Source: Parcubacteria group bacterium 21-54-25 (GTDB lineage: Bacteria; Patescibacteriota; Minisyncoccia; Phycocordibacterales; Phycocordibacteraceae). Taken from it: a stretch of DNA of 64,000 nt. Each line of letters starts with the position of its first letter. Positions within the stretch are counted from its first letter, which is position 1. A program made the translations under genes and the position numbers. Positions 905 through 32,920 of this stretch are shown here, piece by piece. Under the pieces are notes generated by a model, which saw only the letters and a program-made list of their open reading frames with translations, was not told where the DNA came from and did not search any database. The DNA lies in the NCBI GenBank assembly GCA_002255585.1, contig NCBJ01000005.1, positions 1,066 to 65,065 of the forward strand, given 5' to 3'.

Positions 905-913
905 CTTACCACT

Positions 914-2128
914 ATGAAATTTCGCGTTGTGATACGAAAAGCAGACGGAGAAAAAGATCAGCGTGTCATCGATGCGCCTTCGCATTTTGCAATATATGAG
1001 CAGATTGAAAAAGAGGGCGCATCGGTTATTTCCATCACCGAAGGAGCAGGGTTCACCATGCCAGCGTGGCTCAACATGTCCTTTGGTCGCATTGTTTCCC
1101 CAGACGCTCTCGTCGTCATGACCAAAAATCTAAGCGCAATGCTCCACGCAGGGCTCACGCTCTCTCGCGCGCTTGGGATCCTTGAGCGGCAAGCACGCAG
1201 CAAACGTTTTGCGCAGATCATTTCCGCCGTTGGCACGGAAGTCAAAAAAGGATCGGCGTTTCACACTGCGCTCGAGGCCTATCCAAAGGTTTTCTCGAAG
1301 CTGTTTATTTCTATGACGCACGCTGGGGAAGAGAGTGGCACGCTTGCCGAGTCGCTCACTATCGTCGGTACCCAGATGGAACGGAGCAGAAATCTCACGA
1401 AAAAAGTACGGGGCGCGATGATTTACCCGGCCATCATCATCATTGCCATGGTCGGCATCTCCATTCTCATGCTGGTCTTTGTGGTGCCGGTGTTGGCAAG
1501 TACGTTCTCGCAGCTCGGCGTTGCGTTGCCGCTTCCCACTCGCATCATTCTTGGCGCGTCGCATTTCCTACTCACCAACACGCTTATGGTGGTACTCATC
1601 GCCGCAATGGTTATCGCTGCGGCGGTAGTGTTTGTGCGTTCACGTGTCGGCGCCCGACTGCTCTTTGTGGGCATTCTCCATGTTCCGGTTATCGGAGAAC
1701 TGGTGCAAGAAACCTATGCTGCACGCGCCGCACGAACCCTCTCCTCACTCCTTTCTTCCGGTGTCGACATGTTGGGCGCGCTTGCTATTACCCGTGAAGT
1801 GGTCGGCGTTGAAACGTTTGCGTCGATTCTGAAAGAGGCGGAAGATCGTGTCCGCAAGGGCGAACAGCTTTCTGCGGCGTTTTTGGATCACGTCGATCGA
1901 TACCCCGTCATGTTTTCCGACATGATCGCTGTGGGTGAGGAAACAGGCAAAGTTGACGACATGTTGGAACAGGTCGCGGAGTTTTATGAAAATGATGTCG
2001 AGCAGCGCACTAAAGATCTCTCGACCATCGTCGAACCAATTCTGATGCTCCTCATCGGCACGGGCGTCGGCGTTTTCGCCATTGCCATCATCGCGCCGAT
2101 TTATTCGCTCTCCTCAGCAATTCATTAA
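914..2128 (+). CDS. pilC: Type IV pilus inner-membrane platform protein PilC/GspF family
   Basis: 404 aa, two GspF-type repeats, three TM segments, 10-bp gap after pilB. Confidence 0.85.
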   Translation: MKFRVVIRKADGEKDQRVIDAPSHFAIYEQIEKEGASVISITEGAGFTMPAWLNMSFGRIVSPDALVVMTKNLSAMLHAGLTLSRALGILERQARSKRFAQIISAVGTEVKKGSAFHTALEAYPKVFSKLFISMTHAGEESGTLAESLTIVGTQMERSRNLTKKVRGAMIYPAIIIIAMVGISILMLVFVVPVLASTFSQLGVALPLPTRIILGASHFLLTNTLMVVLIAAMVIAAAVVFVRSRVGARLLFVGILHVPVIGELVQETYAARAARTLSSLLSSGVDMLGALAITREVVGVETFASILKEAEDRVRKGEQLSAAFLDHVDRYPVMFSDMIAVGEETGKVDDMLEQVAEFYENDVEQRTKDLSTIVEPILMLLIGTGVGVFAIAIIAPIYSLSSAIH

Positions 2129-2501
2129 GTAAATGCTGCCGCTACGTGTGTGTAATGTAGCGACAGCACGGGGGATTATTTCAGTATCTTGCTATACGGC
2201 CGCAACAACCACAGCGAAACAATCACCCATATGACTATGCTGGTGTAGTACACTGCGCAAGACCATATATTCCACACCCAAAGATGCTCAGTTGTGAGCT
2301 TAAGATTGAGCACGAATCCAAAAGCGGCCATCATTTCCACGAAGCCAGTCTCGAACGACTGAAGGGCGGCTCGTTTTCGCTGCGTATGCATCGCAACTCC
2401 TCCGGAGGGTGAGTGACACGAGGAGACCTCGATATGAAACTTCTCACCAATCTATACCGCAACACACAATTCAGCGCAATAGAGTGCGCTATCATAGTGA
2501 C

Positions 2502-4208: not shown

Positions 4209-4819
4209 AAAACAATACGCACTACATGCACGCGCCGCGCGGCTTTACGTTAATTGAAATGTTGGTCACCATCGCTATAACGGCAGTGGTCATGACTGCG
4301 CTCACATTCCTCATTCAGTATTTCTATCGTACGAACACGTACGTTTTTGAGCAGACGGCCGCGGTTGAAAATGCGCGTAATGGAGTGCTGACGGCGATGC
4401 GCTATTTGCGCGAGGCCTCCTATGGTGCGGACGGTTCGTATCCTATTACGAGTGTCGCAACTTCGAGTGTCGAATTTTATGTTGATATCCAGGGGAATGG
4501 CATCGTTGACCGCGTGCACCTGTACCGCTTAGGCACCACGTTATATCAAGGGGTCACGGTGCCGGTGGGTAACCCGCTCTCGTATGTGGGTCAACCAGAA
4601 GCCACAACCACGCTTGCCACCTACGTGCGCAACAGTACCTCGACGCCGATTTTTCGCTATTACGATGCGAAAGGGAACGAACTCACGCCACCAATTACTG
4701 TTGCAAATATCGCATCGGTCAACACTACCGTTACCGTAAACCTAAACCCCGCGCGCGCACCGGAAGATTTCACTCTCTCAGTAGGCGCAACGCTGCGTAA
4801 CTTGCGTGCTGCGCCCTAG
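4205..4819 (+). CDS. Type IV pilin / pseudopilin (prepilin N-terminal methylation motif)
   Basis: HAPRG|FTLIEMLVTIAITAVV canonical GFTLIE motif; ATGA overlap with upstream stop; alternative start ATG 4226 gives 6-aa leader. Confidence 0.75.
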   Translation: MKNNTHYMHAPRGFTLIEMLVTIAITAVVMTALTFLIQYFYRTNTYVFEQTAAVENARNGVLTAMRYLREASYGADGSYPITSVATSSVEFYVDIQGNGIVDRVHLYRLGTTLYQGVTVPVGNPLSYVGQPEATTTLATYVRNSTSTPIFRYYDAKGNELTPPITVANIASVNTTVTVNLNPARAPEDFTLSVGATLRNLRAAP

Positions 4820-12600: not shown

Positions 12601-14112
12601 ATGCCGCTCTCCACAACCGGACGCGTGTTTTTTCTCGCGGCCGCTACTTTTGCGCTTGGCATTTTCATACGATCGCTCTACGTGCTTCCGATTTCGTTTG
12701 TCGCCATTGCCGCTCTTGCTGCAGTCGCGGCACTTGCGACATGGGTTGTTGCGCGGCAGCCAGTGTATATATTTTTTGGTGTGGCACTCGCCGCCCTTAC
12801 ATTTGGTGTGGTGCGCGTTTCAGTTACTCCACAAGAGCTGCCAAGCGCATTTGCAGACGAACTTGATACGGATGTGTCGCTCACTGGTACGGTTTCGGCG
12901 GCGCCGGACATTCGCGAAAGCAGTCAGCGCATCACCATTACGGTCTCAAAAGACAACGCGACGACGCGCGTGCTCGCCGTCGTCTCGCTCGGCACACCCG
13001 TGTCCTATGGTGAGCGCGTTACTGTGCGCGGGAAACTAACATCGCCACAATCGTTTGCCACCGACTATGGTCGCACTTTTCGTTACGATCGCTATCTTGC
13101 CGCCACTGGTGTCTTTGCCATCATGCCGCACGCGCTACTCACTGAAGTTGCACCGCCTTATGGTGTGTGGGCGCACGTGTATGGTGCGCTCATTGGAGTG
13201 AAGCGGTCATTTCTGCATGCGCTTGGGCTGGCGCTCCCGGAGCCGGCAGCTTCGCTTGCCGGCGGGCTTGTTGCGGGAGGCACCGAGGGACTTGGCGCGT
13301 CGCTCACGAGTGACTTCGTGCGTTCAGGCCTCATCCACATCGTCGTCCTTTCCGGCTACAACGTCATGATCGTTGCTGAGGCTGTGCTGTTCGCTCTTTC
13401 GTTTCTTGCGCGGCGCGCAGCTGCGGGCATCGCCGCGCTGGTCATCGGCGCGTTTGTGCTTGCCGCTGGTGCTGGCGCAGCAAGTATTCGCGCCGGGCTC
13501 ATGGCAGGCTTTGCGCTTTTGGCACGCGCAACCGGCCGTACGTACGACGTAACGCGCGCGCTCGTTGTAGCCGCGCTCCTGATGCTTCTTTGGAATCCAC
13601 TTCTTCTTGCATTTAGTCTCGGTTTCGATTTATCAATCATTGCGACACTCGGTCTCATCCTTGGCGTGCCGCTCATCGAACCGCACCTCGCTTTCATTAA
13701 AAATTTATTTCTGCGCGAAACCGCGGCCGCGACTATCACTGCACAAATTGCGGTGTTGCCGCTTCTGCTTTACGCCAACGGCCTCTTTTCGATTGTTGCG
13801 CTTCCTGCAAACCTGCTCGTGTTACCGCTCGTGCCGCTTGCAATGGCGACTTCAGCATTTGCCGGCCTTGTGGGTGTTGTGCTGCCGGCGCTTGCGCCTG
13901 CGTCAGCGCTTCCGGCATACGCGCTTTTAAGCTACATCGCGTGGGTAGTGCACGCCGCCGCCACCTTGCCGCTTGCGACGGTTGCAGTGCCGAGTTTCTC
14001 GTTTGTGTTTGTCATTCTTGCCTACGCGTTCCTCGCGCTCCCCGTGTACCGCCTCGCAAAAAATAAAAAACCGGCGCTCGCGAACACGAGCGCCAGCCAA
14101 CTCCTCCAGTAA
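12601..14112 (+). CDS. comEC: ComEC/Rec2 DNA-uptake channel: OB-fold (DUF4131) + competence membrane domain, no MBL domain
   Basis: N-terminal TM pair, then the OB-fold segment (starts VSLTGTVSAAPDIRESSQRITITVS, ends GRTFRYDRYLAATGVFA) and the competence-domain signature GLVAGGTEGLGASLTSDFVRSGLIHIVVLSGYNV; ends after last TM helix. Confidence 0.7.
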   Translation: MPLSTTGRVFFLAAATFALGIFIRSLYVLPISFVAIAALAAVAALATWVVARQPVYIFFGVALAALTFGVVRVSVTPQELPSAFADELDTDVSLTGTVSAAPDIRESSQRITITVSKDNATTRVLAVVSLGTPVSYGERVTVRGKLTSPQSFATDYGRTFRYDRYLAATGVFAIMPHALLTEVAPPYGVWAHVYGALIGVKRSFLHALGLALPEPAASLAGGLVAGGTEGLGASLTSDFVRSGLIHIVVLSGYNVMIVAEAVLFALSFLARRAAAGIAALVIGAFVLAAGAGAASIRAGLMAGFALLARATGRTYDVTRALVVAALLMLLWNPLLLAFSLGFDLSIIATLGLILGVPLIEPHLAFIKNLFLRETAAATITAQIAVLPLLLYANGLFSIVALPANLLVLPLVPLAMATSAFAGLVGVVLPALAPASALPAYALLSYIAWVVHAAATLPLATVAVPSFSFVFVILAYAFLALPVYRLAKNKKPALANTSASQLLQ

Positions 14113-14440
14113 CTGCGACTATTTCTTTTTTGTTCGTGCGAGATCCCGCCTTGCTTTTTGTACCACCTTGTTTCGTGCGAGTTTCCCGCGCCCCTGCAAA
14201 TTCCATCGCCGCACCGCCGCCTTCTTGTATGAGAATAGTAAATCGGAAGGAGAAGGTGTGGCGGTCTTCCTCCATGCGTCGCGCAAACCGAAAAGGAACG
14301 CGCCACACAAAAACTTCTTTCCCCTGCCAGATAACTCTCGTTGCCGCCTCCTCTTCTGTAATGCCCGCTCGCGTGAGTTCCCGCGCGAGCGACTCGTTTG
14401 TGAAAGCGTCTGTGAGAAGATACCACGCCGAGTCACTCAT
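14012..14440 (-). CDS. Hypothetical protein (first ~75 aa protein-like, remainder low complexity; may be shorter or decayed)
   Basis: GAGAGGAAA SD-like before ATG 14440; 3' 100 nt overlap comEC; a minus-strand terminator lies inside its 3' part. Confidence 0.25.
   Translation of the reverse strand: MSDSAWYLLTDAFTNESLARELTRAGITEEEAATRVIWQGKEVFVWRVPFRFARRMEEDRHTFSFRFTILIQEGGGAAMEFAGARETRTKQGGTKSKAGSRTNKKEIVAVTGGVGWRSCSRAPVFYFLRGGTRGARGTRRQE
14058..14094 (-). terminator. Intrinsic terminator in minus orientation, embedded in comEC 3' coding end
   Basis: GGCGCTCG-CGAACA-CGAGCGCC with A-tract on + strand (T-tract on - strand). Confidence 0.45.
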
Positions 14441-14558
14441 TGATTTTTCCTCTCAAACACAATGGTTCTTTAATCCGCCCCTACTTTGGCATGAGGAGGT
14501 CAGAGGGTCAACAAAAAGGAAATCCCGTGCAGCGTCAACTTTTTACTGCCTTTGGCAA

Positions 14559-17500
14559 TTACGCGCGCCTCTGTTTGCGCAGCTGGGCGCGATAAAACAA
14601 TACCGGCACCAAGACGAGCGTGAGCACGATGGCGAACGCGAGTCCAAACATAATACTGAAGGCGAGTGGCCCCCACGTGGCGTTGGTGAGCGAAAGAGGA
14701 ATCATGCCGATGACCGTGGTAATCGTTGTCAGAACGATGGGGCGCAAGCGTGTTGCTGCCGAGTCCACGACGACATCAATCGGCGCGGCCTCCGGGGTCG
14801 CGCGCAGATGACGAATCATTGAATCCATCAAAATGATTGCATGGTTGATGATGACGCCACCAAGCGCGATAACGCCCAGGAGTGACGAAAAAGAGATGGG
14901 CTGACCGGTGAGCGCCAAGCCATCAAGCACGCCAATAAGTGAGAGCGGCACGATGCTAATAAGGTAAAAAGTGTAGCGAAAGGAGTTGAACGCAACGATG
15001 AGAATCATAAACATAAGAACCAGCCCGGCGATAAGCGCGACAAACATTTGTGAGAAGGATTGGTTTATGCTCTTGGTGTCGCCGCCATAAGACACTGAGA
15101 CGCCGGGTGGCAGAGAGAGGGAGCTGATTTTTTTCTGAAACGCGCTCACAATAGCAGAGGCAGTTGTGTTTGAGCTTGGATACGCCGACACCGTTTCCAT
15201 ACGCACCTTGTCCTTGTGCACGATGCTTGCATTGTTTTGTGCGAGCGTGGCTGAAAGAATAGAACCAAGCAAGACCGGCCCCTGAGTTCCGTAGACGGTG
15301 AGGTTTTTAAGAGTGCCCAGCGTGGTGCTTGCGGTGTGTGATGGATTGGTACCCCCTGCGTTCAAGTTCATTTTTACCACGACATCCATGGTTTGATTCG
15401 GTTGGGTAATGCTAATTGCCTTGGTGCCGTTTATCGCACTGCGCAGGGTCTGGGCGACCGCAAGCGTGCTCACGCCACGCGCGGCGGCTTTCGCTCGGTC
15501 AATGGTGAAATCAAATTCCGTACCGTTATCTTGGGTACTGCTTGTCAGGTTGGTAACTCCGGGAATGGTTGCAAGCAGGTGTTTTGCGTTGTCGGCCGCA
15601 GTGATGATGTCGTTAAGGTTGTTTCCAAGAAATTCTATCTGCACGGGTGCGCCGCCGGGTGGCCCGCCCGTCACCTGCAGAACCTGCACTGTTGCATCGG
15701 TAATTGAAGCAAGTCTCTTTTGCAGGTCGTTTACCACGTACGTACTGGTGTACGGGTGTCCGGGCGGTAGGTTGACGGTAATGTTTGCGATGTTTGCCCC
15801 GCTTGCTGCATTTGCGAGCGCGCCGCCAGCCAGCGCGGACCCCTGTCCTACCGTTGTTTGAAAAGAATATACCTCGGGGTCTTTATACAGCACCGCCTCT
15901 ACCTGCTCCACTGCGCGGTTGGTGACCGCAAGCGTGGTGCCATAGGGTTTCGTGATACTGATAAAGACAAAATCTTGGTTATTTTGCGGAAGAAACACTG
16001 TCTGTACTACACCGAGAAGAGGGAGAGAGATTGAGACGGCAAAAAGGCCGGCGAGCAGCAGCAAGAATATTTTTTGCGTGTGCCGATGCGTTAGTATGCG
16101 TCGCAACATATTTTTGTACCACGCGGTAATGCGCGCCGTATAGTATTCCTGCTTCTCTTCAAAGGCGTTTGTATGTTTTTTACTCAAGACAATAGCCAGG
16201 AGCGGCACGAGGCCGAGCGATACAAAAATAGACGCAGTGAGAACGAAGATGAGCGTGTAGGGAATGCCAGCAATAAACTTTCCTACAATGCCAGAGATGA
16301 AAAAGAGCGGAACAAAAACAGCAACCGTTGCCATAGTGCCCGCGATAAGCGGCCACGCGTAGTCCGCGAGTGCTTGGCGCGCCGCAGCAAGCGCACCTCC
16401 ATTCCCTCGCATACGCGCGTGAATTGCCTCAGTAACGACAATACCGGAGTCCACCAAAATGCCGACTGCCAAAATAAGTGCAAACAAACTAATGAAATTG
16501 AGCGAGTTACCGGTCATGTACAGACCGATAAACGCGATAAGGAAGGAAAGGGGAATAGAAATCGCAGCAACAACTGCTTCGCGCCAACCAATGGTGATGA
16601 GCAGTACAAGCAACACCAACGCAACCGTTTCCACTCCAGTTTTCGCAAGATCACCGAGCTGTTTTCCAACCTGCACGCTCATATCGGTTGCGGGAGATAC
16701 GTAGACAGTAAAACCAGCAAGCGTTGTCTTTTGCAGAGACTGTAGCGCGTCCTTTACGGCGCTCGCTACGCCCTGCGTGGAGGCGCTGGACTGTTTGTAC
16801 ACCGAGAAGGTAATGGCATTTTGTGCGGGCTTTCCGCCCAGAGAAAGTCGCGAGTAGGTGGTCGCTGGCGCAAGACCATTAATCACCTGTGCTACATCGC
16901 GCACATACACCGCCGCGCCGTTTTTACTCGCCACGACGACGTTGTTGATAGTGGCGGGGTCTGTGATGCCGCCCTTGAAATTCACCGTATACGAAACACC
17001 GTTTGTTGAAATAGCGCCAACAGGTATAGGCGCATTTGCTGTTTGGATAGCGCCTATGACATCAGCGAGCGTAAGTCCGTATGCCGCAAGATTATTTTTA
17101 TTGACGATGACGTCGACCTGGCGATCCGGTACGCCCGCGACATTGACATCGGAAACACCGGACACGCGTTTCAGTGCGTCTGATACTGTTTGTCCCGTCT
17201 CCGACAAAAGAAGCGGGGGCACCGGCGCCGCGACTGACGCGATAAGAACCGGCGTATTGGAGAAGCTTACTTTTGTTACAGCGGGAGTGGACGCATCGGC
17301 AGGGAGGTTGGGAACGGCTTTTGACACTGCGTCGCGCAAATTTTGTATAGACTGATCAATGTTCGCATTCGCGTCAAACTGCACCGTGATAGTAGACACG
17401 CTGTCGCGCGAGGTAGACGTCATCGTATCAATATTGCTAATGCCCGATATCTGATCTTCAAGCTTGTTCGTGACAAGCGTCTCCATGTCGGTCGCAGACG

Positions 17501-17663
17501 CTCCGGTGAGCGTCGTGACGACGATGCCTTCCGCGATATTTACAGGCGGCTGTACTTCTTTGGGGATTTGGAGTAAAGAAAAAGAGCCAGCGATGATAAG
17601 CGTGGCGACAAGCACATAGCTAAACTGTCGCCGATCAAGAAAAAAATGCCACAGCCACAACAT
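14559..17663 (-). CDS. RND-family efflux transporter (AcrB/HAE1-like, 12 TM, two large periplasmic loops)
   Basis: 1034 aa, AcrB-type N-terminus MLWLWHFFLDRRQFSYVLVATLIIAG, duplicated TM bundles. Confidence 0.85.
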   Translation of the reverse strand: MLWLWHFFLDRRQFSYVLVATLIIAGSFSLLQIPKEVQPPVNIAEGIVVTTLTGASATDMETLVTNKLEDQISGISNIDTMTSTSRDSVSTITVQFDANANIDQSIQNLRDAVSKAVPNLPADASTPAVTKVSFSNTPVLIASVAAPVPPLLLSETGQTVSDALKRVSGVSDVNVAGVPDRQVDVIVNKNNLAAYGLTLADVIGAIQTANAPIPVGAISTNGVSYTVNFKGGITDPATINNVVVASKNGAAVYVRDVAQVINGLAPATTYSRLSLGGKPAQNAITFSVYKQSSASTQGVASAVKDALQSLQKTTLAGFTVYVSPATDMSVQVGKQLGDLAKTGVETVALVLLVLLITIGWREAVVAAISIPLSFLIAFIGLYMTGNSLNFISLFALILAVGILVDSGIVVTEAIHARMRGNGGALAAARQALADYAWPLIAGTMATVAVFVPLFFISGIVGKFIAGIPYTLIFVLTASIFVSLGLVPLLAIVLSKKHTNAFEEKQEYYTARITAWYKNMLRRILTHRHTQKIFLLLLAGLFAVSISLPLLGVVQTVFLPQNNQDFVFISITKPYGTTLAVTNRAVEQVEAVLYKDPEVYSFQTTVGQGSALAGGALANAASGANIANITVNLPPGHPYTSTYVVNDLQKRLASITDATVQVLQVTGGPPGGAPVQIEFLGNNLNDIITAADNAKHLLATIPGVTNLTSSTQDNGTEFDFTIDRAKAAARGVSTLAVAQTLRSAINGTKAISITQPNQTMDVVVKMNLNAGGTNPSHTASTTLGTLKNLTVYGTQGPVLLGSILSATLAQNNASIVHKDKVRMETVSAYPSSNTTASAIVSAFQKKISSLSLPPGVSVSYGGDTKSINQSFSQMFVALIAGLVLMFMILIVAFNSFRYTFYLISIVPLSLIGVLDGLALTGQPISFSSLLGVIALGGVIINHAIILMDSMIRHLRATPEAAPIDVVVDSAATRLRPIVLTTITTVIGMIPLSLTNATWGPLAFSIMFGLAFAIVLTLVLVPVLFYRAQLRKQRRA

Positions 17664-17666
17664 AGT

Positions 17667-19274
17667 TTAGGGGGTGCCAACAATGACCGACTGGCCGCTT
17701 GAAAGCCCGCGCGCGTCAATCACAATACGCAAAGAAGCGCTCACGTCTGGCTGAAGAGCCGCCATCCCATCGGCAATGTCTTGAATCGTAACCGGATGCG
17801 CGACGAGCGCGCTCGAACTGCTCACCGTAAAGATTTCCGCTCCCGCCGGTGTTATTTTTATCGCGGTGAGAGGAACAAAAAGAAGCGGGCCGCTGTATGT
17901 TGAAGTAACTCGATAAGAAAGTACAACGGGTACGGTTTCTCCATCGGTAAGCGTTTGTGGGGAACCAATGAGACCTACCCTGACTTCAATTTTGTTTGTC
18001 AGGGGGTCGCGCGCTGGCGCGATAAAGGTTATGACACCTGGGAAAGAGTCATTTATGATAGCCCTATCGCCCACGGCCAGTTTCGCGGCGTCGGTGGCGG
18101 AAACGGCCGTTTTGATATACAGAGCATGCGGATTTGAAATAACCGCAACAGGGGAAAACGTTGGTACGTAGTCACCAAGCGTGATGGGTAAACTGACGAT
18201 TGTTCCGCTAACAGGGCTTCGAACAATCGTTTTTTCAAGTGCTGCACGTGCGGCGTCATAGCCGCCCTGCGCTTGCTTTACTTGCGCCTTTGCAAGAGCG
18301 ATGGCACCGGCCGTGCCGCCTGTCGCTACGTTTTGTGCCGCTTGTGTTCCTGAAATAGCGTTGTCATACGCACTCTTTGCCGCAATAAGACCGGAAAGGG
18401 CGGCGTTCACTTCACTACGGCCTGCAGAAACAGATGCAGCGTAGCCCGCAAGGGTACTGGCAGACACGCTTGCGCTCGGCTGGGTTTCATTGATAGCAGC
18501 GGTAAGGTTTCCAAGAAATTGTGTAGCAAAATTCGCTGCAGTGATCACGTCCGTGCCGTGCGCGTCGAGTGTTGAGCTTGCGGTATCTTGCACCTCGGGA
18601 CGAATCGTCGCAAATATCGTTTGAAGCTGCCTTCGCTCTTCTTGCAACAGATTTATAAGTTTATTATCGGGTACGATAAGCGTTAGTTGTGCGGAAATTG
18701 TGCGAGGATTGGAGAAGAGCACGTCTGCTTTCGTGTGTATCGCGTCGTCAAGCGCGGCATAGGTACTCTGGAGCGCATTTGCAAAGGCGTTTTGTGCGTT
18801 ATTCTGCACACTCGTGCTTTGCACAACGGAAATATGGGACCCCGTTGCTGATGTGCCTTCAGCATTTGCAACGCCAACCTGCGCTGCTTCGTACGCGCCC
18901 TGCGCCTGCAAGACGACCGCCTGTTGGGAGCTATTTTCAAAGGAGGCAATGATTTCACCTGCGGAAACATGGTCACCAAGGGCGTGTGGAAGAGAAACAA
19001 TCTCGCCTGCCGTTTGCGAGAGCACGGTTGCCTGATTGAGTGACGTTACCGTGCCGATGACCGGAAGCGAACTTGTCGCAGATGAAAAACTCGCAATAGG
19101 AGCAACGGTTACCTGCACGGCGTTAGAAAGAGACGTATCGCCTGCTGCTGGTGTCGTGCGTGCGGTGTACGCGTGTATCCCCCCGCCAAGTGCGACAAGA
19201 AGAACAAGACCTCCAAAAAACGACCACAGCGGCGCGCGTGCGATAACGTTACGAAACGGTGTCAGTAGAGACAT
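17667..19274 (-). CDS. Efflux periplasmic adaptor (membrane fusion protein, HlyD/AcrA family)
   Basis: N-terminal TM anchor, long Ala/Gln-rich coiled-coil hairpin, biotinyl-lipoyl and beta-barrel segments; 3-bp gap to RND gene. Confidence 0.7.
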   Translation of the reverse strand: MSLLTPFRNVIARAPLWSFFGGLVLLVALGGGIHAYTARTTPAAGDTSLSNAVQVTVAPIASFSSATSSLPVIGTVTSLNQATVLSQTAGEIVSLPHALGDHVSAGEIIASFENSSQQAVVLQAQGAYEAAQVGVANAEGTSATGSHISVVQSTSVQNNAQNAFANALQSTYAALDDAIHTKADVLFSNPRTISAQLTLIVPDNKLINLLQEERRQLQTIFATIRPEVQDTASSTLDAHGTDVITAANFATQFLGNLTAAINETQPSASVSASTLAGYAASVSAGRSEVNAALSGLIAAKSAYDNAISGTQAAQNVATGGTAGAIALAKAQVKQAQGGYDAARAALEKTIVRSPVSGTIVSLPITLGDYVPTFSPVAVISNPHALYIKTAVSATDAAKLAVGDRAIINDSFPGVITFIAPARDPLTNKIEVRVGLIGSPQTLTDGETVPVVLSYRVTSTYSGPLLFVPLTAIKITPAGAEIFTVSSSSALVAHPVTIQDIADGMAALQPDVSASLRIVIDARGLSSGQSVIVGTP

Positions 19275-19283
19275 ATAAAAAGA

Positions 19284-19715
19284 TTAGGCAAGTGCGCCAT
19301 TTATTTTTTTAGTAAGGCGTACATACTGAGTAAATTCTTGGTCTGTGAGCGTTGAAAACAATCGCTTGAGATGGATGAGGATGGCATGCTGTACGCGCGC
19401 CATGCCGCGTCGCGCTGTGGGAGAGAGCGTCAACACACTTTCTCTACGATCAACAGTGCTCGATTTTTTTATGACGTACTGTTTCTTGACGAGCTCGTTG
19501 ACGAGCTGCGTCGCGGCGCTGCTGGTGATGCCAAACGTGCGCCGAATATCTTTTATAGAGGTACTCCTCTCTTTATAAATAAAGTGGAGCACCATCCACT
19601 GCGTGTGAGTCACCGAAAGGCCGTGCGTACGACACAGGTCTTTTAAGTTGGTGTGCTGACGCATTTTATGGAACCCCGCAAGCATGTTTTGCAGCTCTGC
19701 TGTTCGGGTATCCAT
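19284..19715 (-). CDS. MarR-family transcriptional regulator
   Basis: 143 aa; winged-HTH LSVTHTQWMVLHFIY...IKDIRRTFGITSSAATQLVNELVKKQYVIKKSSTVDRRESVLTLS; heads the MFP-RND operon. Confidence 0.8.
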   Translation of the reverse strand: MDTRTAELQNMLAGFHKMRQHTNLKDLCRTHGLSVTHTQWMVLHFIYKERSTSIKDIRRTFGITSSAATQLVNELVKKQYVIKKSSTVDRRESVLTLSPTARRGMARVQHAILIHLKRLFSTLTDQEFTQYVRLTKKINGALA

Positions 19716-19787
19716 AATAGATAAGATACTTACCTATTTGCCTTTTGTTGTCAAGTCGCTCGGTTGTGGGGCGGGCGTCCGCTCTTT

Positions 19788-19804
19788 GACCAACTAGGTC
19801 AAGA
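19788..19804. promoter_or_regulatory. Perfect palindrome TTGACC-aacta-GGTCAA upstream of marR (candidate operator)
   Basis: 6-bp arms, 5-bp spacer, 73 bp upstream of marR ATG. Confidence 0.35.
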
Positions 19805-20013
19805 GATCGTGGTTAGAGGAGAGAGTTTTTTGTTTTCATACGACAATGTATCGTACCCAAACAGATCTCACACGATCCCTTGACCCGACTGACCAATTCG
19901 ACCCACCGCACAACAGGGCTTCGCCACCACACCCCTCTTTCCTGTTTCGCTCTTTTGAGCTCATCAGCGCGAGCACACACTCGCGGACAGAGGGGAGCAG
20001 CGCTCCCCCGTAT

Positions 20014-20214
20014 TTAGTGCCGTCGTCGGTTTCCGCCTCGGATCGCATTTCCGAGGGTCACGAGTGCTCCGCCGACCGCATGGCGCACGAAACGCAAGGT
20101 CGCGCGCAGCGGCCAGAGCGCAACCGCGCCGGCACCTCGGTGCCCGCGAAACACAAACGCCAGTCCCGCTACCAGAATCCAAATTGCAAGCACGAGGACA
20201 ACGTTGTTGTGCAT
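20014..20214 (-). CDS. Small single-TM protein (66 aa)
   Basis: AAAGGAGA SD 5 nt before ATG 20214; MHNNVVLVLAIWILVAGLAFVF; lies directly downstream of 45-bp repeat copy 1. Confidence 0.4.
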   Translation of the reverse strand: MHNNVVLVLAIWILVAGLAFVFRGHRGAGAVALWPLRATLRFVRHAVGGALVTLGNAIRGGNRRRH

Positions 20215-20281
20215 CGTATTCTCCTTTTCACACACAATGCCCGGCGTGTGGATAATGTCCATAGGGCGCGGGTACGCCGCC

Positions 20282-20326
20282 ATCTCTTTGGAAACTCGAA
20301 CGCGTGCTCAAGTTCCCAAAAGATAG
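20282..20326. repeat. 45-bp perfect direct repeat, copy 1 (internal dyad around ACGCGT)
   Basis: ATCTCTTTGGAAACTCGAACGCGTGCTCAAGTTCCCAAAAGATAG identical to 20957-21001. Confidence 0.9.
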
Positions 20327-20397
20327 GACGAGCAACAGATTCCTCTGAAGCTCGCCCAATAAACCAGTGGAGATATCGCATCTCCACATCGAAAGAA

Positions 20398-20931
20398 CTA
20401 TACTAGTTTCGCCGTCGAGAGGCCCATACCGAGGGCCTCCTCGACAGTAATTTTTTTTCCATGCAGTCCGGGCGTTGCCTGGACGCTGCTCGGGCGGACC
20501 GGCTCGCCCGGGTGCACGGTGAAGACGATCTCGCGACCGTCTTCCTCCCCGACGATGAGGACAAGGAAGTCAACATCGTCACCCCGGACGCCCTCTACAA
20601 CCGCCGACACCCGGCCGGTGCCCTTACGGTCGTCGAGGGTGACGGTGGTTCCGGCGGGTAACTCCGCCAGAGGCTTGACCCCGAGGAGCCCGCGAAGGCT
20701 CCGCGTCCGAAAGGCCGTGCAGCCCTCCGAAATAGCCGGATGGGAGTACGCCTCCCACTCCGCCTCAAGGAGCGCTTGCTCCAACTCCTCAGGGGTGCTC
20801 ACACCTAAAATCACCGACCCGACCCCGCCGCCAGGAAGACGCTGCTCGAGCGTCTTCCGCCAATATTGTGCGTCTACCACCTTGGTAAACGCAATTGCGG
20901 TTACTACTACCTTCTTTCCTTTCATGTTCAT
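20398..20931 (-). CDS. Hypothetical protein (177 aa, acidic)
   Basis: GAGAGGTG SD 4 nt before ATG 20931; flanked by the two 45-bp repeat copies. Confidence 0.5.
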   Translation of the reverse strand: MNMKGKKVVVTAIAFTKVVDAQYWRKTLEQRLPGGGVGSVILGVSTPEELEQALLEAEWEAYSHPAISEGCTAFRTRSLRGLLGVKPLAELPAGTTVTLDDRKGTGRVSAVVEGVRGDDVDFLVLIVGEEDGREIVFTVHPGEPVRPSSVQATPGLHGKKITVEEALGMGLSTAKLV

Positions 20932-20956
20932 GTTGCACCTCTCTTTTTGAAGAATT

Positions 20957-21001
20957 ATCTCTTTGGAAACTCGAACGCGTGCTCAAGTTCCCAAAAGATA
21001 G
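20957..21001. repeat. 45-bp perfect direct repeat, copy 2
   Basis: Identical to 20282-20326; 25 bp upstream of the 20931 start. Confidence 0.9.
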
Positions 21002-21034
21002 CCTGACTCGATACAAACAAAGCACCGAGTCAGG
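21002..21034 (-). terminator. Hairpin CCTGACTCG-15nt-CGAGTCAGG downstream of minus gene 21050-21499
   Basis: 9-bp perfect stem immediately after stop codon. Confidence 0.4.
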
Positions 21035-21049
21035 CAAGAACAACATGAG

Positions 21050-21499
21050 TCAGTCGTCGTAGGCTCCGCTGAGCTCTACGAAGCCCTCCTCAACCGGAAA
21101 CTCAGACATGTGATCATCGGCAGTGGTGTCCCACCGCCAGTCTTTCGAGGACTCCACCATCAGGAGTCCTCGCTGCTCCGCTTCGCGGAACAGCGCCCTA
21201 AAGGACTCCGATAAGGTACCGTGGAAGTTCAGGGCGTGCCGCCTGCCGTCAAACTCCACGGTCACACTCACGAGCCCTTCTTGCCCCGGCCCCTCCAAGA
21301 GCGTATGGAGAACCAGTCTCCATACATTTGGCGGCTCATGCCGCCCCATTTTCAATACGATCTGCCCCGGGGAGCAGATCAGCTCTTCTCCCTCGTTGCT
21401 TCTCAGGTCGGCCGCGAGGCCGGCCCCGATACCCACCAGGAGCTCTACGAGCTCCTGGTACTGCCGCCTCGTGGCGGCCACGGTCGTGTGAACTTTCAT
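21050..21499 (-). CDS. Hypothetical protein (149 aa, acidic C-terminus)
   Basis: GGAGGA SD 3 nt before ATG 21499; GC-rich codon usage. Confidence 0.5.
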   Translation of the reverse strand: MKVHTTVAATRRQYQELVELLVGIGAGLAADLRSNEGEELICSPGQIVLKMGRHEPPNVWRLVLHTLLEGPGQEGLVSVTVEFDGRRHALNFHGTLSESFRALFREAEQRGLLMVESSKDWRWDTTADDHMSEFPVEEGFVELSGAYDD

Positions 21500-21829
21500 A
21501 ATTCCTCCTCGCCCGTTTCTGGGCTTAAGAATTTTTCCGAGAAACCGCTCGGGGCGGATGGCGGCGACGTACCACCTTAATCCCCTTATAAATGGGGAGT
21601 ATTTATTTAGGAATTGCTTTGCAATCCCTCATACCGCACCCAGCGCACGGATTGCGCGATGAGTCCGGCAGCGAGGAATAACAACGCGGTTGTTACACAC
21701 GCGAACAATTGTTCCGCGTTATTCCCAAACTACCTATTCAATTTTCAAGCAACATCCTGCCTCTTTAAATCGCAGGGAGAAGTCGGTGGCGACGCAATAA
21801 AATAACTGCCCTCGCCGACCGGCTTCTTC

Positions 21830-22000
21830 CAACGAAAAATGACTGGCTCTAGTAGGAGAGCCAGTCATTTTTCAGTCTGGAAACTTCGGGGACGCCGCAT
21901 ATCGTATGCTTTGATCGCGTTCTCCCTAAGACTCTCTTCTCTAAGAAATCATCTTTTATGTTGATTTGTAAGGTTCTTTCGTGCCCGCGCTCTTTCTTTG
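21830..22000 (-). ncRNA. Candidate ~170-nt small RNA (promoter-to-terminator unit with no ORF longer than 11 codons)
   Basis: Minus-strand TTGACA(22036-22031)-17 nt-TGcTAATAT(22013-22008) extended -10 promoter; intrinsic terminator 21836-21872; AT-rich 670-bp noncoding gap. Confidence 0.35.
21836..21872. terminator. Bidirectional intrinsic terminator
   Basis: AAAAATGACTGGCTCT-agtagg-AGAGCCAGTCATTTTT, 15-bp perfect stem flanked by A/T tracts. Confidence 0.7.
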
Positions 22001-22007
22001 TGTCTGT

Positions 22008-22036
22008 ATATTAGCATGGACAGTATATTTTGTCAA
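22008..22036 (-). promoter_or_regulatory. Near-consensus sigma70-type promoter (minus strand)
   Basis: TTGACA / 17-nt spacer / TG-n-TAATAT. Confidence 0.5.
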
Positions 22037-22172
22037 GTGCTTTTCCTCGGTATTCCTGCGGGCTTGTAACCTCATTACCTGCCACAATATTAGCACGAGT
22101 ATTAATATATGTCAAGCCCTCGACCGGTGCCGTAAGGCATCATCGATCAGGGGCTTGTTTTTAGCTTTTTAT

Positions 22173-22772
22173 TTATCTGCCACGCTCCGTCGCGTCGAAG
22201 CGGGCTTCGACGGCGGACCAGTTGAGGTTTTTAAAGAAGGCGTCCACGTAGCTCGACTTCTCAGCCGGGACGTAGTCCACCATGAAGGCGTGCTCCCAGA
22301 GGTCGAGCGCAAGCAGGACCGGAAGCCCCGCGAGCTGACCAATTTCGTGGTCGTTTACGAAGACGGTGTGGAGTGTTTTGCCTGCCGGATCGAAATACAC
22401 GACGACCCAGCCGATGCCGCGGCTGCCGGCGACCTCACGCACGTGGGCAATGAGATTTTCGTAGCTGCCGTATTTTTCCTCGGCCGCCTTTGCAAGTGCG
22501 CTGGCGGTATTTTGTTCCTTTGCGCCACCTTCAAACTGCTCGAAATAATGCTCATGCATGCGCATACCGTTGAACTCAAACGCAAACCGGCGGCGCAGCT
22601 CGGCGATGAGGTACGCATTCGCTTCTTTCTCTTCCGCTAGCTCGGCTATTTTCTGCCGGATGAGGTTAGTGTGTTTTACATACCCAGCGTAAAGCCCGAG
22701 GTGCACCTCTATTTGTGTAGCGGACAATCCAGAAAGTTCGGGGATGTTGAATGTGCGTGTTTTGTATTCCAT
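22173..22772 (-). CDS. sodA: Fe/Mn superoxide dismutase
   Basis: FNIPELSGL N-terminus, DLWEHAFMVDY metal-ligand signature; start set to ATG 22772 (ORF track extends to 22934). Confidence 0.85.
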   Translation of the reverse strand: MEYKTRTFNIPELSGLSATQIEVHLGLYAGYVKHTNLIRQKIAELAEEKEANAYLIAELRRRFAFEFNGMRMHEHYFEQFEGGAKEQNTASALAKAAEEKYGSYENLIAHVREVAGSRGIGWVVVYFDPAGKTLHTVFVNDHEIGQLAGLPVLLALDLWEHAFMVDYVPAEKSSYVDAFFKNLNWSAVEARFDATERGR

Positions 22773-22825
22773 ATATACATAGTATACACGAACGCGCGCC
22801 TTGTTTCGCGTGGTACCATTTTCGT

Positions 22826-23167
22826 ATGCCCTTTGAACACCCCGGCATGCCAGAAAGACACGCGGCCGCAATGGACGCGAGGATGGAGCGCCTTGCGCTT
22901 TCGGATTTGAAGCTACAGCCATACTTGATGGCACGACTCTTTGCGCTCTCTCATCCCGATGTGCGTTTGGACGATCCCGACGCGCGCACGCTTGCTGCGC
23001 GGGAGTGGGTTGCTGACGCTTCCGACCCGCAAACGCCTGCGGCGCGTTTCAGGCGCTATGTGGAAAAGAAGGCACAGGACGGAACACCACACGAAGTGGC
23101 GCTCACTGACGCAGCGTTCGATGAAATTCTTCGTGCCATCGGTGTGCTGCCCGAGACGGTGCACTGA
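22826..23167 (+). CDS. Hypothetical protein (113 aa)
   Basis: Divergent from sodA; ATG 22826 chosen over upstream TTG/ATG extension. Confidence 0.4.
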   Translation: MPFEHPGMPERHAAAMDARMERLALSDLKLQPYLMARLFALSHPDVRLDDPDARTLAAREWVADASDPQTPAARFRRYVEKKAQDGTPHEVALTDAAFDEILRAIGVLPETVH

Positions 23168-23240
23168 CCGACGAAAACGCTAAATTGTTATTCATCCAAG
23201 GTACTTGCAGTTGCCGCAAGTCCGTATACACTAAAGCTAT

Positions 23241-23621
23241 ATGCCTGAAAAATTTCCAACAAACAAACCAGCATCAACAGCAGCAAGCGGTACTCATAAC
23301 GAAGGTTCTGACGAAGACATCATGGTACAGAAAGTACACGACGCGCTGCGCCCCGAAAACGAGCGCAGAGGGAATCCGCTTACCGGCGAAGAACTTCTTT
23401 TTGTGGCAAGAGTATATGCGGAGAATGCAAGGAAACGCGGACAGAATGTGGACCCAGAGAACATTCCCATGGACGAACTGTTTGCCGCTCGGGAAGAGAT
23501 TAAAAAAGTCGGTATACCGATTGTCGATCCAGGGACGGGAGATGTTCTTCACGCTAAGGATGAGGAGAGTGTGCGCAGGACGATAGAACAACACTCTAAA
23601 GACATCCGTGAAGGGAACTAA
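23241..23621 (+). CDS. Hypothetical protein (126 aa, charged)
   Basis: Clean ORF followed by bidirectional terminator; TATACA 10 nt upstream of ATG. Confidence 0.45.
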   Translation: MPEKFPTNKPASTAASGTHNEGSDEDIMVQKVHDALRPENERRGNPLTGEELLFVARVYAENARKRGQNVDPENIPMDELFAAREEIKKVGIPIVDPGTGDVLHAKDEESVRRTIEQHSKDIREGN

Positions 23622-23655
23622 CAACGCATAACCACAATCTCGCGCGTAAACGTAA

Positions 23656-23712
23656 AAAAGAAGGGCCGCCGCGATCTTCGGACCGCGACGGCCTTGGTGG
23701 TTTTTGGTTTTA
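23656..23712. terminator. Bidirectional intrinsic terminator between convergent genes
   Basis: AAAAAAG-AAGGGCCGCCGCG-loop-CCGCGACGGCCTT-GGTGGTTTTTGGTTTT. Confidence 0.65.
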
Positions 23713-23904
23713 ATGGATCCTCTCGTTTTTGCGCGCCTGATCTCTGGATGCCAGGACGCGCATCATCCGCAACGCCTGGAGCATTTTCCAGGGCGGCCAG
23801 TTCCTGCCGCGCAGTTTCCGGACGGTCTCCTCGCCCGGGTCGTACTCCAGGCGTAGCGAGGCGATTTGCCGCTCCGCCTCTGCATCATCTGGCATCTCTC
23901 GCAT
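23710..23904 (-). CDS. Small hypothetical protein (64 aa, Arg-rich)
   Basis: GAGGAGA SD 6 nt before ATG 23904. Confidence 0.4.
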   Translation of the reverse strand: MREMPDDAEAERQIASLRLEYDPGEETVRKLRGRNWPPWKMLQALRMMRVLASRDQARKNERIH

Positions 23905-23963
23905 ATCGGCTCTCCTCGTCAAGGAACTTTACTTAAACAAAGTGTACAATACATTTTAAGACT

Positions 23964-24824
23964 ATGCAAACTGTCAGCCGCTCGCATACCGCCCTGTATC
24001 TTGGAATTATCGCGCTCTTGGTTGTCAATGCGTTCATCTGGTTAGCAGTATTTTCTGCTGGAGACGGCATGCTGCACATATCGTTTCTCGCTGTGGGCGA
24101 GGGCAGAGCGGTGCTCGTGCAAAGCCCGACCGGTGCAACCGTGCTCATAGACGGCGGCCCAGACCACGCAGTGCTGCGCGCGCTGCCCGCGGTGCTTGGG
24201 CCGCTCAACCGATCGCTCAATCTTGTCATTCTCACCAACCCGACCACCGCAAATGCTGGCGGGGTACCCGGCATCTTTGATCGCTACGACGTGCACGCAT
24301 TTATGGCTCCGGCCGTGCCAAACAGCAGCGTCGCCGCGCGCATGGCGGCCGCGGCCGCCGGAAACGAGCCGCAACTCGCCTATATTTCTGCAACGCGCGG
24401 CGCGCGCGTGGTTCTCGGCGCCGGCGCGTTCATCGACGTGCTTGCGCCAGATCGCGACGTGTCGGGCGTACGCGCCGAAACGGGTTCAACCGTGCTGCGT
24501 ATTGTGTATGGCGACACCGCCTTTCTGCTGCCAAGCGATGCGCCCGTTGGCGTTGAGCGTTGGCTGGCGCAGCTCGACGCTACGAGCACGCTTTCAAGCA
24601 CCGTGCTTGCCGTGGGGCACTTTGGCGCAAAAGACACGGTCGCTGGCGACTGGCTTTCGAAGGTGCGTCCGACGTACGCAGTCCTGTCCGTTGGACACAA
24701 TCCGTACGGCTACCCCGCCACCACGACACTCGCCACACTTGTGCGTGCCGGTGCGCGCGTGCTCACGACCGCGAGTGGCACCGTGGCGTTTGTGAGTGAT
24801 GGACAAGCGGTGTGGCGAAAATAA
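23964..24824 (+). CDS. ComEC/Rec2-type metallo-beta-lactamase domain protein with N-terminal TM anchor
   Basis: ISFLAVGEGRAVLVQSPTGATVLIDGG and VGHNPYGYP match ComEC C-terminal MBL domain; single TM helix at N-terminus. Confidence 0.65.
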   Translation: MQTVSRSHTALYLGIIALLVVNAFIWLAVFSAGDGMLHISFLAVGEGRAVLVQSPTGATVLIDGGPDHAVLRALPAVLGPLNRSLNLVILTNPTTANAGGVPGIFDRYDVHAFMAPAVPNSSVAARMAAAAAGNEPQLAYISATRGARVVLGAGAFIDVLAPDRDVSGVRAETGSTVLRIVYGDTAFLLPSDAPVGVERWLAQLDATSTLSSTVLAVGHFGAKDTVAGDWLSKVRPTYAVLSVGHNPYGYPATTTLATLVRAGARVLTTASGTVAFVSDGQAVWRK

Positions 24825-32914: not shown

Positions 32915-32920
32915 TTACTC

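Follow-up and report, generated by a model that had tools for sequence, protein, structure and literature searches.

A ComEC split between two genes in Parcubacteria, with a detached metallo-beta-lactamase half that has lost its metal ligands

The window, a 64-kb stretch of DNA from Parcubacteria group bacterium 21-54-25, opens with type IV pilus genes (8..4819, plus strand) that encode a PilB/T-type ATPase cut at the window start, PilC, and a pilin that carries an N-methylation motif (Pfam matches to T2SSE, T2SSF and N_methyl). This pilus is likely the DNA-capture partner of ComEC. Pfam further identifies RecJ (10323-12047) and an RNase H-like gene (12172-12591) on the same strand, both conserved upstream of the gene for the N-terminal half of ComEC (ComEC-N; 12601..14112, plus strand). 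The 503-aa ComEC-N product is 100% identical to NCBI B7X04_02180 of this bacterium. In Pfam it matches DUF4131 (PF13567, OB fold) at residues 29-175 (59.8 bits, cut-off 31.6) and Competence (PF03772) at residues 223-485 (147.8 bits, cut-off 23) and has no metallo-beta-lactamase (MBL) domain, and it aligns with the solved ComEC 30bt_A at residues 144-475. The initial annotation, made from the sequence alone, had placed an OB fold and a competence membrane module here, which these matches bear out. It had also noted that the channel gene stops right after the last transmembrane (TM) helix; about 20 residues follow the last hydrophobic helix, and the K/R-rich tail that they form at the end of the protein is presumably cytoplasmic.

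A second gene on the plus strand, at 23964..24824, encodes 286 aa. The AF2 model and sequence matches indicate a TM helix (residues 6-30) and, after it, an alpha/beta domain of MBL type (residues ~36-286) that would face outside the cytoplasm. The model has a pLDDT of 93, a confidence that partly reflects intact homologues because these dominate the underlying alignment. Is this domain related to ComEC or to some other MBL family? It matches the C-terminal part of the ComEC_Rec2 model TIGR00361 (positions 427-660, E 4.6e-14, 51.5 bits), and ComEC-N matches positions 154-389 of the same model (32.6 bits); the equivalog cut-off is 190 bits, which neither half reaches. A phmmer search of the PDB returned the MBL part of solved ComEC (30bt_A residues 510-791, E 6e-19) and 9ic4 (E 1.8e-18), the best non-ComEC MBL having an E value of only 0.76. 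Foldseek likewise ranked the ComEC MBL domain 9ic4 first (E 1.5e-21, TM 0.78/0.83); its best non-ComEC match was the phosphorylcholine esterase Pce (E 9e-13), already known as the nearest relative of the ComEC MBL domain outside ComEC itself. Finally, the protein shares 38% identity, TM helix included, with the C-terminus of a three-domain ComEC. It is thus an MBL domain of the ComEC C-terminal type with a single TM anchor, as initially annotated, and both reading frames lie on the plus strand where they had been placed, with the quoted peptides present in their translations.

That annotation had allowed for an unrelated MBL hydrolase, and one might also suspect that the split is an assembly or frameshift artefact. 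The sole point in favor is a missing Pfam match: neither the window protein nor its homologs in L002 and L039 match any family, Lactamase_B (PF00753) included, at E <= 0.01, and intact halves (P0004, L008, L014) score 50-54 bits against PF00753. Against an unrelated hydrolase stand the TIGR00361 match, the identity to three-domain ComEC, and the fact that ComEC alone among solved structures gives significant sequence matches, so that the protein groups with ComEC and not with other MBL families; against an artefact, independently assembled genomes show the split as well and have other genes separating the halves. We reject both ideas as next to impossible.

The two halves tile a complete ComEC. 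On the fused 793-aa protein P0260, the N-half covers residues 85-505 and the MBL half residues 512-787, with no overlap, which puts the break point at about residues 505-512 of fused ComECs. The correspondence of both halves to ComEC is far beyond chance, and the central claim stands: ComEC is divided here between a gene for the channel and one for a TM-anchored MBL domain. Related genomes are split too, and do not have a fused ComEC alongside an independent paralog: the best 120 homologs of either half are all stand-alone proteins (~285 aa for the MBL half, ~495 aa for the channel), and they come from Kaiserbacteria, Paceibacteria and Parcubacteria. The two-gene ComEC is therefore clade-wide in Parcubacteria and not specific to the window genome. 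In L008 the halves overlap by ATGA, which may couple their translation; in L014 they are adjacent, and in L003 sodA alone separates them. An old gene fission would account for this arrangement, an ancestral three-domain ComEC having been cut in the cytoplasmic loop before the last TM helix to yield a channel subunit (OB fold plus competence module) and a bitopic one, in which a single TM helix places the MBL domain outside. The two products would then assemble in trans. Most Parcubacteria have an MBL subunit with all catalytic motifs, encoded beside the channel gene, and its nuclease presumably works in trans.

In the window, 9.85 kb separate the stop of the channel gene from the start of the MBL gene. 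Directly 3' of ComEC-N is a small conserved gene (13973..14443) whose strand is ambiguous (ORF 14119-14436 on the minus strand or 13973-14443 on the plus strand); small ORFs that occupy this position in L036 and L039 share 43-45% identity with it. Then comes a block of ~7.7 kb (14445..22172), delimited by Pfam and synteny, that holds an RND efflux cassette: an AcrB-type RND pump (14559-17663), an HlyD-type fusion protein (17667-19274), MarR (19284-19715) and two unannotated ORFs (20398-20931 and 21050-21499), all on the minus strand. The block is lineage-specific, being absent at the equivalent position in L002, L034, L036, L039 and L047, whose gene order is otherwise the same, RecJ and RNase H upstream included; its GC content is 0.533, as against 0.58 and 0.57 in the flanks. 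Next is an Fe/Mn superoxide dismutase gene (sodA; 22173..22934, minus strand, Pfam Sod_Fe_C), whose true start is probably later than 22934. This sodA is a conserved spacer, found at the same place in L001, L002, L003, L034, L036, L039, L040, L042 and L047. Two small conserved plus-strand genes (22751-23167, 138 aa, and 23241-23621, 126 aa), whose products have no Pfam matches and share 40-44% identity with same-position ORFs in L036 and L039, complete the interval. In close relatives, the interval between the halves contains just the small gene, minus-strand sodA and at most two or three other small genes. The separation of about 10 kb originally remarked on is thus accurate as a distance; it would have arisen by secondary insertion of the efflux block between the channel gene and the sodA-MBL segment, and is not part of the split itself.

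The His/Asp metal ligands of the ComEC nuclease are not conserved in the window protein. Alignments with 30bt and 9ic4, together with a motif table of 120 homologs, place the remnant of MBL motif II at residues 91-97 (T-N-P-T-T-A-N; 24234..24254, plus strand), where ComEC has T-H-P-D-x-D-H; N92-P-T94-T-A96-N97 replaces all four metal ligands of this motif. The x-H-H-G-S-x motif of ComEC has become G-H-F-G-A-K (residues 218-223; 24615..24632, plus strand), in which H219 is kept, the second His is Phe and the Ser is Ala (A222). The bridging Asp of motif IV is retained (D192, in LLPSDA). This degeneration is common to a whole sub-clade and not confined to the window protein: motif II is intact or near-intact in about 112 of 120 stand-alone homologs (exactly T-H-P-D-x-D-H in 103, and with only the first His changed, to Asn, in nine), and members of the degenerate clade have TNPTTAN, TNPQASN, TNTRTAV, TNIDTGS, TTPSDSA or TDTKSAD in its place, so the former active-site positions vary. 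In the ComEC MBL domain, H598A, D602A, H603A and D700A each eliminate activity in vitro, D600A slows the reaction about 5-fold, and the equivalents of the four inactivating changes abolish transformation in Legionella pneumophila (PMC12455585); a double Asp-to-Ala change costs the domain Mn2+ binding and activity (PMC8579336). Judged by its residues, the MBL half is catalytically degenerate and cannot be a canonical metal-dependent nuclease, and because the metal ligands are lost, we predict that it lacks Mn2+-dependent nuclease activity.

Could it nevertheless be a nuclease that works in trans, as the initial annotation suggested, attacking the non-transported strand through a metal site that has been rebuilt or is mononuclear? 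It retains D192 and H219, the Asn residues N92 and N97 could coordinate a metal and give weak or altered activity, and the gene is under purifying selection; moreover, Silale et al. did not take the replacement of His by Asn and of Asp by Glu in Streptococcus pneumoniae as proof of inactivity (PMC8579336). However, all four motif II ligands are changed here, two of them to Thr and Ala, and a single Ala at H598, D602 or H603, three of the four corresponding positions, inactivates the enzyme, the fourth (D600A) slowing it ~5-fold (PMC12455585); the double Asp-to-Ala mutant does not bind Mn2+ (PMC8579336); and clade members differ from one another at the motif II positions, which speaks against a newly formed functional site. 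An active nuclease is accordingly very unlikely.

Loss of the catalytic motifs, the missing Pfam match and separation from ComEC-N could suggest a decaying pseudogene of the former ComEC C-terminus. The selection data say otherwise. Degenerate MBL genes have dN/dS values of 0.13 (P0002 vs L001) and 0.14-0.18 (P0006 vs L002); for the genome pair of the latter comparison (L034 vs L002), values are 0.09-0.12 for ComEC-N and 0.12-0.14 for sodA. The degenerate MBL gene is thus under purifying selection at a rate similar to that of ComEC-N. Given dN/dS values (0.13-0.18) equal to those of neighboring housekeeping genes, at least 12 distinct intact, full-length ORFs in as many lineages of the degenerate clade (42-61% identity) and a confidently predicted fold, the pseudogene explanation is effectively refuted.

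Two further features changed or persisted along with the loss of ligands. Sequence comparison within the clade identifies an N-P-Y-G-Y-P loop (residues 246-251, with Y248 and Y250; 24699..24716, plus strand) in which both aromatic positions are kept and which is invariant in the four closest degenerate-clade members. Judged only by its spacing from the HHGS serine, it may correspond to ComEC 'loop 2', the pin or guide loop; in L. pneumophila this loop is R-F-x-F (R688/F689/F691), lies at the channel entrance, and abolishes transformation when its two aromatics are mutated. The ectodomain, once acidic, has become neutral or basic: its net charge ranges from -3 to +20 across the degenerate clade, compared with -13.5 +/- 5.6 (range -27 to -2) in 108 intact stand-alone homologs.

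From the purifying selection and the retention of fold, TM anchor and aromatic loop we infer a non-catalytic partner of the ComEC channel. On the best available explanation, the MBL half is probably a non-catalytic and possibly DNA-guiding subunit of a two-piece ComEC, selected even though its active site is lost. What goes beyond the observed split, ComEC homology, ligand loss, selection and synteny history is that the subunit would assemble with the channel in trans, bind or guide DNA and have no nuclease activity of any kind. It would sit docked at the mouth of the channel and there bind the incoming DNA or guide it, perhaps as a strand-separating pin, and the non-transported strand would pass to another nuclease or stay undegraded; no replacement nuclease, an EndA-like partner included, was identified within the 64-kb window. 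Of the two alternatives first offered, a nuclease in trans or an unrelated hydrolase beside a nuclease-less ComEC, neither fits.

A further alternative is that the detached MBL domain now serves a purpose that has nothing to do with ComEC, such as binding an envelope or host-surface component, for which it would have retained no more than its fold and TM anchor, and that ComEC-N works alone. The metal ligands and the DNA-contact Ser and His are gone, the ectodomain charge has changed strongly, and the nearest non-ComEC structural relative, Pce, is a cell-wall enzyme. ComECs with DUF4131 and Competence only are common, including in transformable species (PMC6299819), and the position of the MBL gene, no longer near ComEC-N in the window, L001 and L040, fits this explanation equally well. 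Against it, the order RecJ, RNase H, ComEC-N, sodA (minus strand), MBL persists in five degenerate-clade genomes (L002, L034, L036, L039, L047); the loop whose aromatics are needed for L. pneumophila transformation is invariant in the closest members; and both halves evolve at similar rates between genome pairs (N-half/MBL 60/58%, 68/56% and 56/44%). We consider recruitment to an unrelated job rather unlikely, although less so than an active nuclease.

A bolder version of the non-catalytic subunit can be put forward tentatively, at somewhat less than even confidence: that a basic, dead, membrane-anchored MBL 'pseudonuclease' has become an obligatory subunit of a two-piece ComEC and binds or wedges the duplex at the channel mouth across a radiation of Parcubacteria. 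ComEC-dependent transformation has been demonstrated in a cultivated CPR bacterium (PMC10633639). If the dead subunit is indeed obligatory, the role of the MBL domain in DNA uptake is separable from strand degradation, and the host either uses another nuclease or imports DNA without degrading the second strand. This touches on what the ComEC MBL domain contributes beyond hydrolysis and on why S. pneumoniae keeps an apparently inactive copy. Parcubacteria offer two natural experiments: detachment of the MBL module across the group, and then destruction of its active site in one sub-clade with selection maintained. The first indicates that ComEC can be divided ahead of its last TM helix and still be viable, and the intact and dead stand-alone subunits, taken together, provide a clean means of telling structural or guiding roles apart from catalysis. 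The findings also bear on inferences about DNA uptake and processing in these nucleotide-auxotrophic bacteria.

They call, too, for a correction to the CPR literature. The window N-half by itself, with DUF4131 and Competence, has the 'DC profile' of Pimentel and Zhang 2018 (PMC6299819), and Meheust et al. 2019 reported the CPR ComEC family to be without MBL fusion (PMC6744442). Both surveys scored domains per protein and so counted the MBL domain as absent, whereas Parcubacteria usually encode this 'lacking' domain in a separate, neighboring gene; in the searchable literature we found no mention of a separate MBL gene as the missing ComEC domain.

Compared with canonical ComEC/Rec2 (Bacillus subtilis; Moorella/Neomoorella, PDB 32KS/30BT/30BU and 9IC4), the window preserves the three modules and their order, namely OB fold, competence channel, and last TM helix with extracytoplasmic MBL domain, and both halves align end to end. 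It differs in that the modules are divided between two polypeptides, the cut falling in the loop that precedes the last TM helix, and in that the MBL domain has no H-x-D-x-D-H ligands, which make ComEC an Mn2+-dependent nuclease. The intact stand-alone halves (P0004, L008, L014) resemble the window protein in length, TM anchor, fission point and ComEC-N neighborhood, but keep GQGD, THPDxDH, GD, GHHGS, YGHP, a PF00753 match and an acidic ectodomain, none of which the window protein has. Pce/CbpE (PDB 2BIB, 1WRA), the second-best structural match after ComEC, is only 14-15% identical to the window MBL protein; it has no TM anchor and has choline-binding repeats and an intact binuclear Zn site. 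A parallel in kind is S. pneumoniae ComEC, which is served by a separate nuclease, EndA, and likewise keeps its MBL module despite substituted metal ligands. There, however, the module remains part of the fused protein and has undergone conservative substitutions (His to Asn, Asp to Glu, Asp to Asn), whereas the window encodes it in a gene of its own, with radical replacements (Thr, Ala, Phe) at positions that drift from one relative to the next.

Both ORFs that the initial annotation had described as parts of a split ComEC (12601-14112 and 23964-24824) are present on the + strand, one locus of each kind within the 64-kb window, and their products are 100% identical to proteins B7X04_02180 and B7X04_02235 of Parcubacteria group bacterium 21-54-25. 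In Pfam searches the first product (ComEC-N, 503 aa) has a DUF4131 OB fold (residues 29-175) and a Competence domain (residues 223-485), both scoring well over the cut-offs, and no MBL domain; about 20 residues past the last hydrophobic helix it terminates, in a K/R-rich tail. The second product (the MBL half, 286 aa) has no Pfam match. Is it the C-terminal part of ComEC, or an unrelated MBL hydrolase beside a nuclease-less ComEC? The protein matches the C-terminal part of the TIGR00361 ComEC_Rec2 model (positions 427-660, E 4.6e-14). Searched against all solved structures it matched ComEC alone, with E values of 6e-19 (30bt_A), 1.8e-18 (9ic4) and 1.8e-7 (9vc6), against 0.76 for the next MBL protein, and the unrelated-MBL reading was rejected on these grounds. 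The AlphaFold2 model (mean pLDDT 93, pTM 0.89, helix at residues 6-30) has as its best structural match the ComEC MBL crystal structure 9ic4 (E 1.5e-21, TM 0.78/0.83), followed by Pce/CbpE, which the literature also names as the closest relative of the ComEC MBL domain. Family model, solved structures and predicted fold thus agree with the original assignment of this product to the ComEC C-terminal type.

Judged by alignment, the split is a clean fission. ComEC-N aligns to residues 144-475 of the 801-residue solved ComEC chain 30bt_A, and the MBL half, with its TM helix, to residues 510-791. On P0260, a fused 793-aa ComEC from the representative search in which Pfam confirmed DUF4131, Competence and Lactamase_B, the halves correspond to residues 85-505 and 512-787 (the latter at 38% identity), which places the cut in the short loop that precedes the last TM helix, with nothing missing. 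The charges at the break (the basic C-tail of ComEC-N and an Arg ahead of the helix in the short N-tail of the MBL half) would, by the positive-inside rule, leave the MBL domain facing outwards, as in canonical ComEC.

Splitting of ComEC is general in Parcubacteria, unlike the 10 kb gap. All of the best 120 homologues of the MBL half stand alone, at about 255-300 aa but for a single one of 379 aa; those with a name come from Kaiserbacteria, Paceibacteria or Parcubacteria, and the best 120 homologues of ComEC-N are all of about 430-525 aa with DUF4131 and Competence only. Among the best 148 matches of an exhaustive representative search, 105 are stand-alone, 17 partial and 26 fused (750-845 aa, matched at the C-terminus). 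A genome scan used as query A2, a four-sequence alignment of the sub-clade to which the window belongs. When the surveyed genomes are compared for fused and split forms, the split recurs in Parcubacteria, and fused comEC genes of about 780-820 codons occur in Chloroflexi (loci L004, L007 and L019) and at many metagenome loci (L050-L076). The two genes can be very close: at L008 the ComEC-N stop codon overlaps the MBL-gene start (ATGA), at L014 (Jorgensenbacteria) 82 bp lie between them, and at L003 only an opposite-strand superoxide dismutase gene does. A neighbour-joining tree of 154 MBL domains recovers the window's clade (P0001, P0002, P0003, P0006, P0241, P0242 and P0246) and sets fused and stand-alone forms only roughly apart; the clustering of the degenerate sequences could be long-branch attraction, and the tree is too weak for counting fission or ligand-loss events.

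In five relatives (L002, L034, L036, L039 and L047) the gene order is RecJ, RNase H, ComEC-N, a small gene in some cases, sodA (opposite strand), up to three small genes, the MBL half, an HD gene (opposite strand) and L28/M50, and the ComEC halves are 0.7-2.3 kb apart. None of these genes, the small ones included, is missing from the window, which also has a block of about 7.7 kb (~14445-22172) with an AcrB-type pump, an HlyD-type fusion protein, MarR (all by Pfam) and unannotated ORFs. The GC content of the block is 0.533, against 0.57-0.58 in the flanks. The separation of about 10 kb noted initially therefore exists, but it is not part of the split itself: it reflects a secondary insertion into an otherwise shared gene order.

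The RND efflux cassette (14559-19715: AcrB, the HlyD-type protein and MarR) lies between ComEC-N and sodA. At L042 (2285-7086) HlyD and AcrB occupy the same position in opposite orientation, and the L042 AcrB is 80% identical to that of the window, as against 59% for the flanking ComEC-N and 46% for the MBL half. The identity and the flipped orientation suggest that the cassette is mobile or was exchanged recently, or that an inversion took place at a hot spot for insertions. In L001 and L040 the spot is taken up by different genes of unknown function; Pfam, run on the L001, L040 and L042 genes lying upstream of sodA and on two small L039 ORFs, matched only DoxX, on an L042 ORF. Also within the inserted block, a 45-nt perfect direct repeat that is itself partly palindromic (ATCTCTTTGGAAACTCGAACGCGTGCTCAAGTTCCCAAAAGATAG, at 20282-20326 and 20957-21001) brackets an unannotated ORF (20398-20931, - strand).

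Three small genes, one just past ComEC-N (13973-14443 region) and two between sodA and the MBL half (22751-23621), are kept in place in L036 and/or L039 at 40-45% identity; they have no Pfam matches and may belong to the functional neighbourhood of ComEC. RecJ (a 5'-3' ssDNA exonuclease) and an RNase H-like gene stand directly upstream of ComEC-N in the window (10323-14112), in L002, L034, L036, L039 and L047, and in L008, where the upstream ORF was assigned from size alone. Such an arrangement may couple DNA uptake to nucleotide salvage or to processing in the cytoplasm. Promoter, terminator and Rfam scans around ComEC-N and the MBL gene gave nothing over background. By eye, an extended -10-like element on which the promoter scan was silent (TGTACAAT, 23943-23950) lies 14-21 nt upstream of the MBL start codon (23964), which has no obvious Shine-Dalgarno sequence.

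As one possibility, the initial annotation had the nuclease working in trans. Residue-by-residue alignment to solved ComECs, together with a motif table of the 120 homologues, showed that the His/Asp metal ligands are not conserved, all four motif II positions being substituted at once (T-N-P-T-T-A-N for the usual T-H-P-D-x-D-H). The motif I region reads GEGR for GQGD, G-H-H-G-S has become G-H-F-G-A, and the C-terminal loop is Y-G-Y-P in place of Y-G-H-P; the bridging Asp of motif IV is kept (D192). In the characterised M. glycerini ComEC domain the H598A, D602A, H603A and D700A mutants have virtually no activity and D600A is slowed five-fold, and the equivalent L. pneumophila mutants are not transformable (PMC12455585); in the M. 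thermoacetica domain a double Asp-to-Ala change in motif II abolished Mn2+ binding and nuclease activity (PMC8579336). By its motifs, the MBL half of the window is catalytically degenerate.

P0002/L001/L033, P0003/L036, P0006/L002/L034, P0241, P0242, P0246 and L039-L045 share this degeneracy; L047, a partial match, was put in this clade from identity and synteny only. Every member stands alone, and what occupies the former ligand positions varies from one to another, which argues against a rebuilt active site. The motif set is intact or near-intact in about 112 of the 120 nearest stand-alone homologues, and Pfam PF00753 is matched by the intact halves tested (P0004, L008 and L014) and not by degenerate ones. 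Nine of the 120 (P0066, P0078, P0083, P0088, P0091, P0109, P0110, P0112 and P0117) have T-N-P-D-K-D-H, in which the sole change is the first motif II His to Asn, the substitution also reported for S. pneumoniae ComEC. A further pair, P0104 and P0108, is degenerate in a different way. At L019 (8423-10759, Chloroflexi MAG JACQYF010000042) a fused 778-aa ComEC has a degenerate MBL domain (TNPDDAH, without GQGD or HHGS), so that ligand loss occurs also in fused ComECs outside CPR.

Could the MBL half be a pseudogene? For two closely related pairs of degenerate genes, dN/dS was 0.13 (dS 0.19) and 0.14-0.18 (dS 0.37-0.44); for other genes of L034 against L002 the values were 0.09-0.12 (ComEC-N), 0.05-0.10 (RNase H) and 0.12-0.14 (sodA). 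The ORF is full length throughout the degenerate clade, at 42-61% identity, and with the low dN/dS this led us to reject the pseudogene reading. The two halves are similarly conserved, the identities to the window (ComEC-N/MBL half) being 60/58%, 68/56%, 59/46% and 56/44% in individual genomes.

What selection preserves is hinted at by two features. An N-x-Y-G-Y-P loop is invariant in the four closest members of the clade and, from its distance to the HHGS serine, may correspond to ComEC 'loop 2', a pin or guide element whose two aromatics are needed for transformation in L. pneumophila. For 108 intact stand-alone homologues the ectodomain has a net charge of -13.5 +/- 5.6 (range -27 to -2); in the degenerate clade it runs from -3 to +20. 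Losing three or four acidic ligands does not explain a shift of this size, and its direction is the one to be expected of a binder of DNA or another polyanion.

Elsewhere in the window, three consecutive genes (27271-33709) resemble a cohesin-dockerin surface assembly, unusual for a CPR bacterium. One encodes a 1664-aa protein in which Ig-like, PKD, HYR and fn3 domains occur, another a 213-aa protein that matches dockerin weakly, and the third is a 262-aa ORF (259 aa in L037) with a cohesin domain; a 1051-aa protein (40918-44073) also has a weak dockerin match. L037/L038 (GCA_035427565.1, contig DAOMBW010000006.1, 55.9 kb) encode proteins identical to those of the window, collinear over at least 25-54 kb, indicating the same or a nearly identical organism assembled independently.

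Domain surveys have described ComECs 'lacking' the MBL domain (PMC6299819), and Meheust et al. found the ComEC-MBL fusion essentially absent from CPR bacteria (PMC6744442); neither paper mentions a separately encoded MBL half, and full-text literature searches found no report of one for Parcubacteria, Patescibacteria or CPR. Some stand-alone halves are annotated 'competence protein ComEC' in databases, so the split is already implicit there. No earlier description appears to exist of a dead stand-alone MBL subunit kept under selection.

The analysis establishes a two-gene ComEC whose TM-anchored, ComEC-derived MBL-fold subunit has lost its ligands, is under purifying selection and has stayed linked to ComEC-N in most relatives. 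The main rival explanation is that this subunit now serves a function outside ComEC, with which the loosened linkage seen in the window, in L001 and in L040 is consistent; the linkage kept in most relatives fits a subunit still working with ComEC. On this latter, preferred reading the subunit would still dock on the channel/OB-fold subunit and act as a non-catalytic DNA-binding or strand-guiding element, the other strand being degraded by another factor or left undegraded. A Pfam search of the window for a replacement nuclease, in which many ORFs were without a match, gave RecJ and RNase H, both of cytoplasmic type, and neither an EndA- nor a NucA-type domain. By Pfam, the window also has type IV pilus genes, 8-12 kb upstream, and a cultivated CPR bacterium has been shown to undergo natural transformation that depends on ComEC (PMC10633639). 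The proposed mechanism has a precedent in S. pneumoniae: the MBL domain of its fused ComEC is partly substituted and was suggested by Silale et al. to be kept as a guide (PMC8579336), and EndA degrades the non-transported strand.
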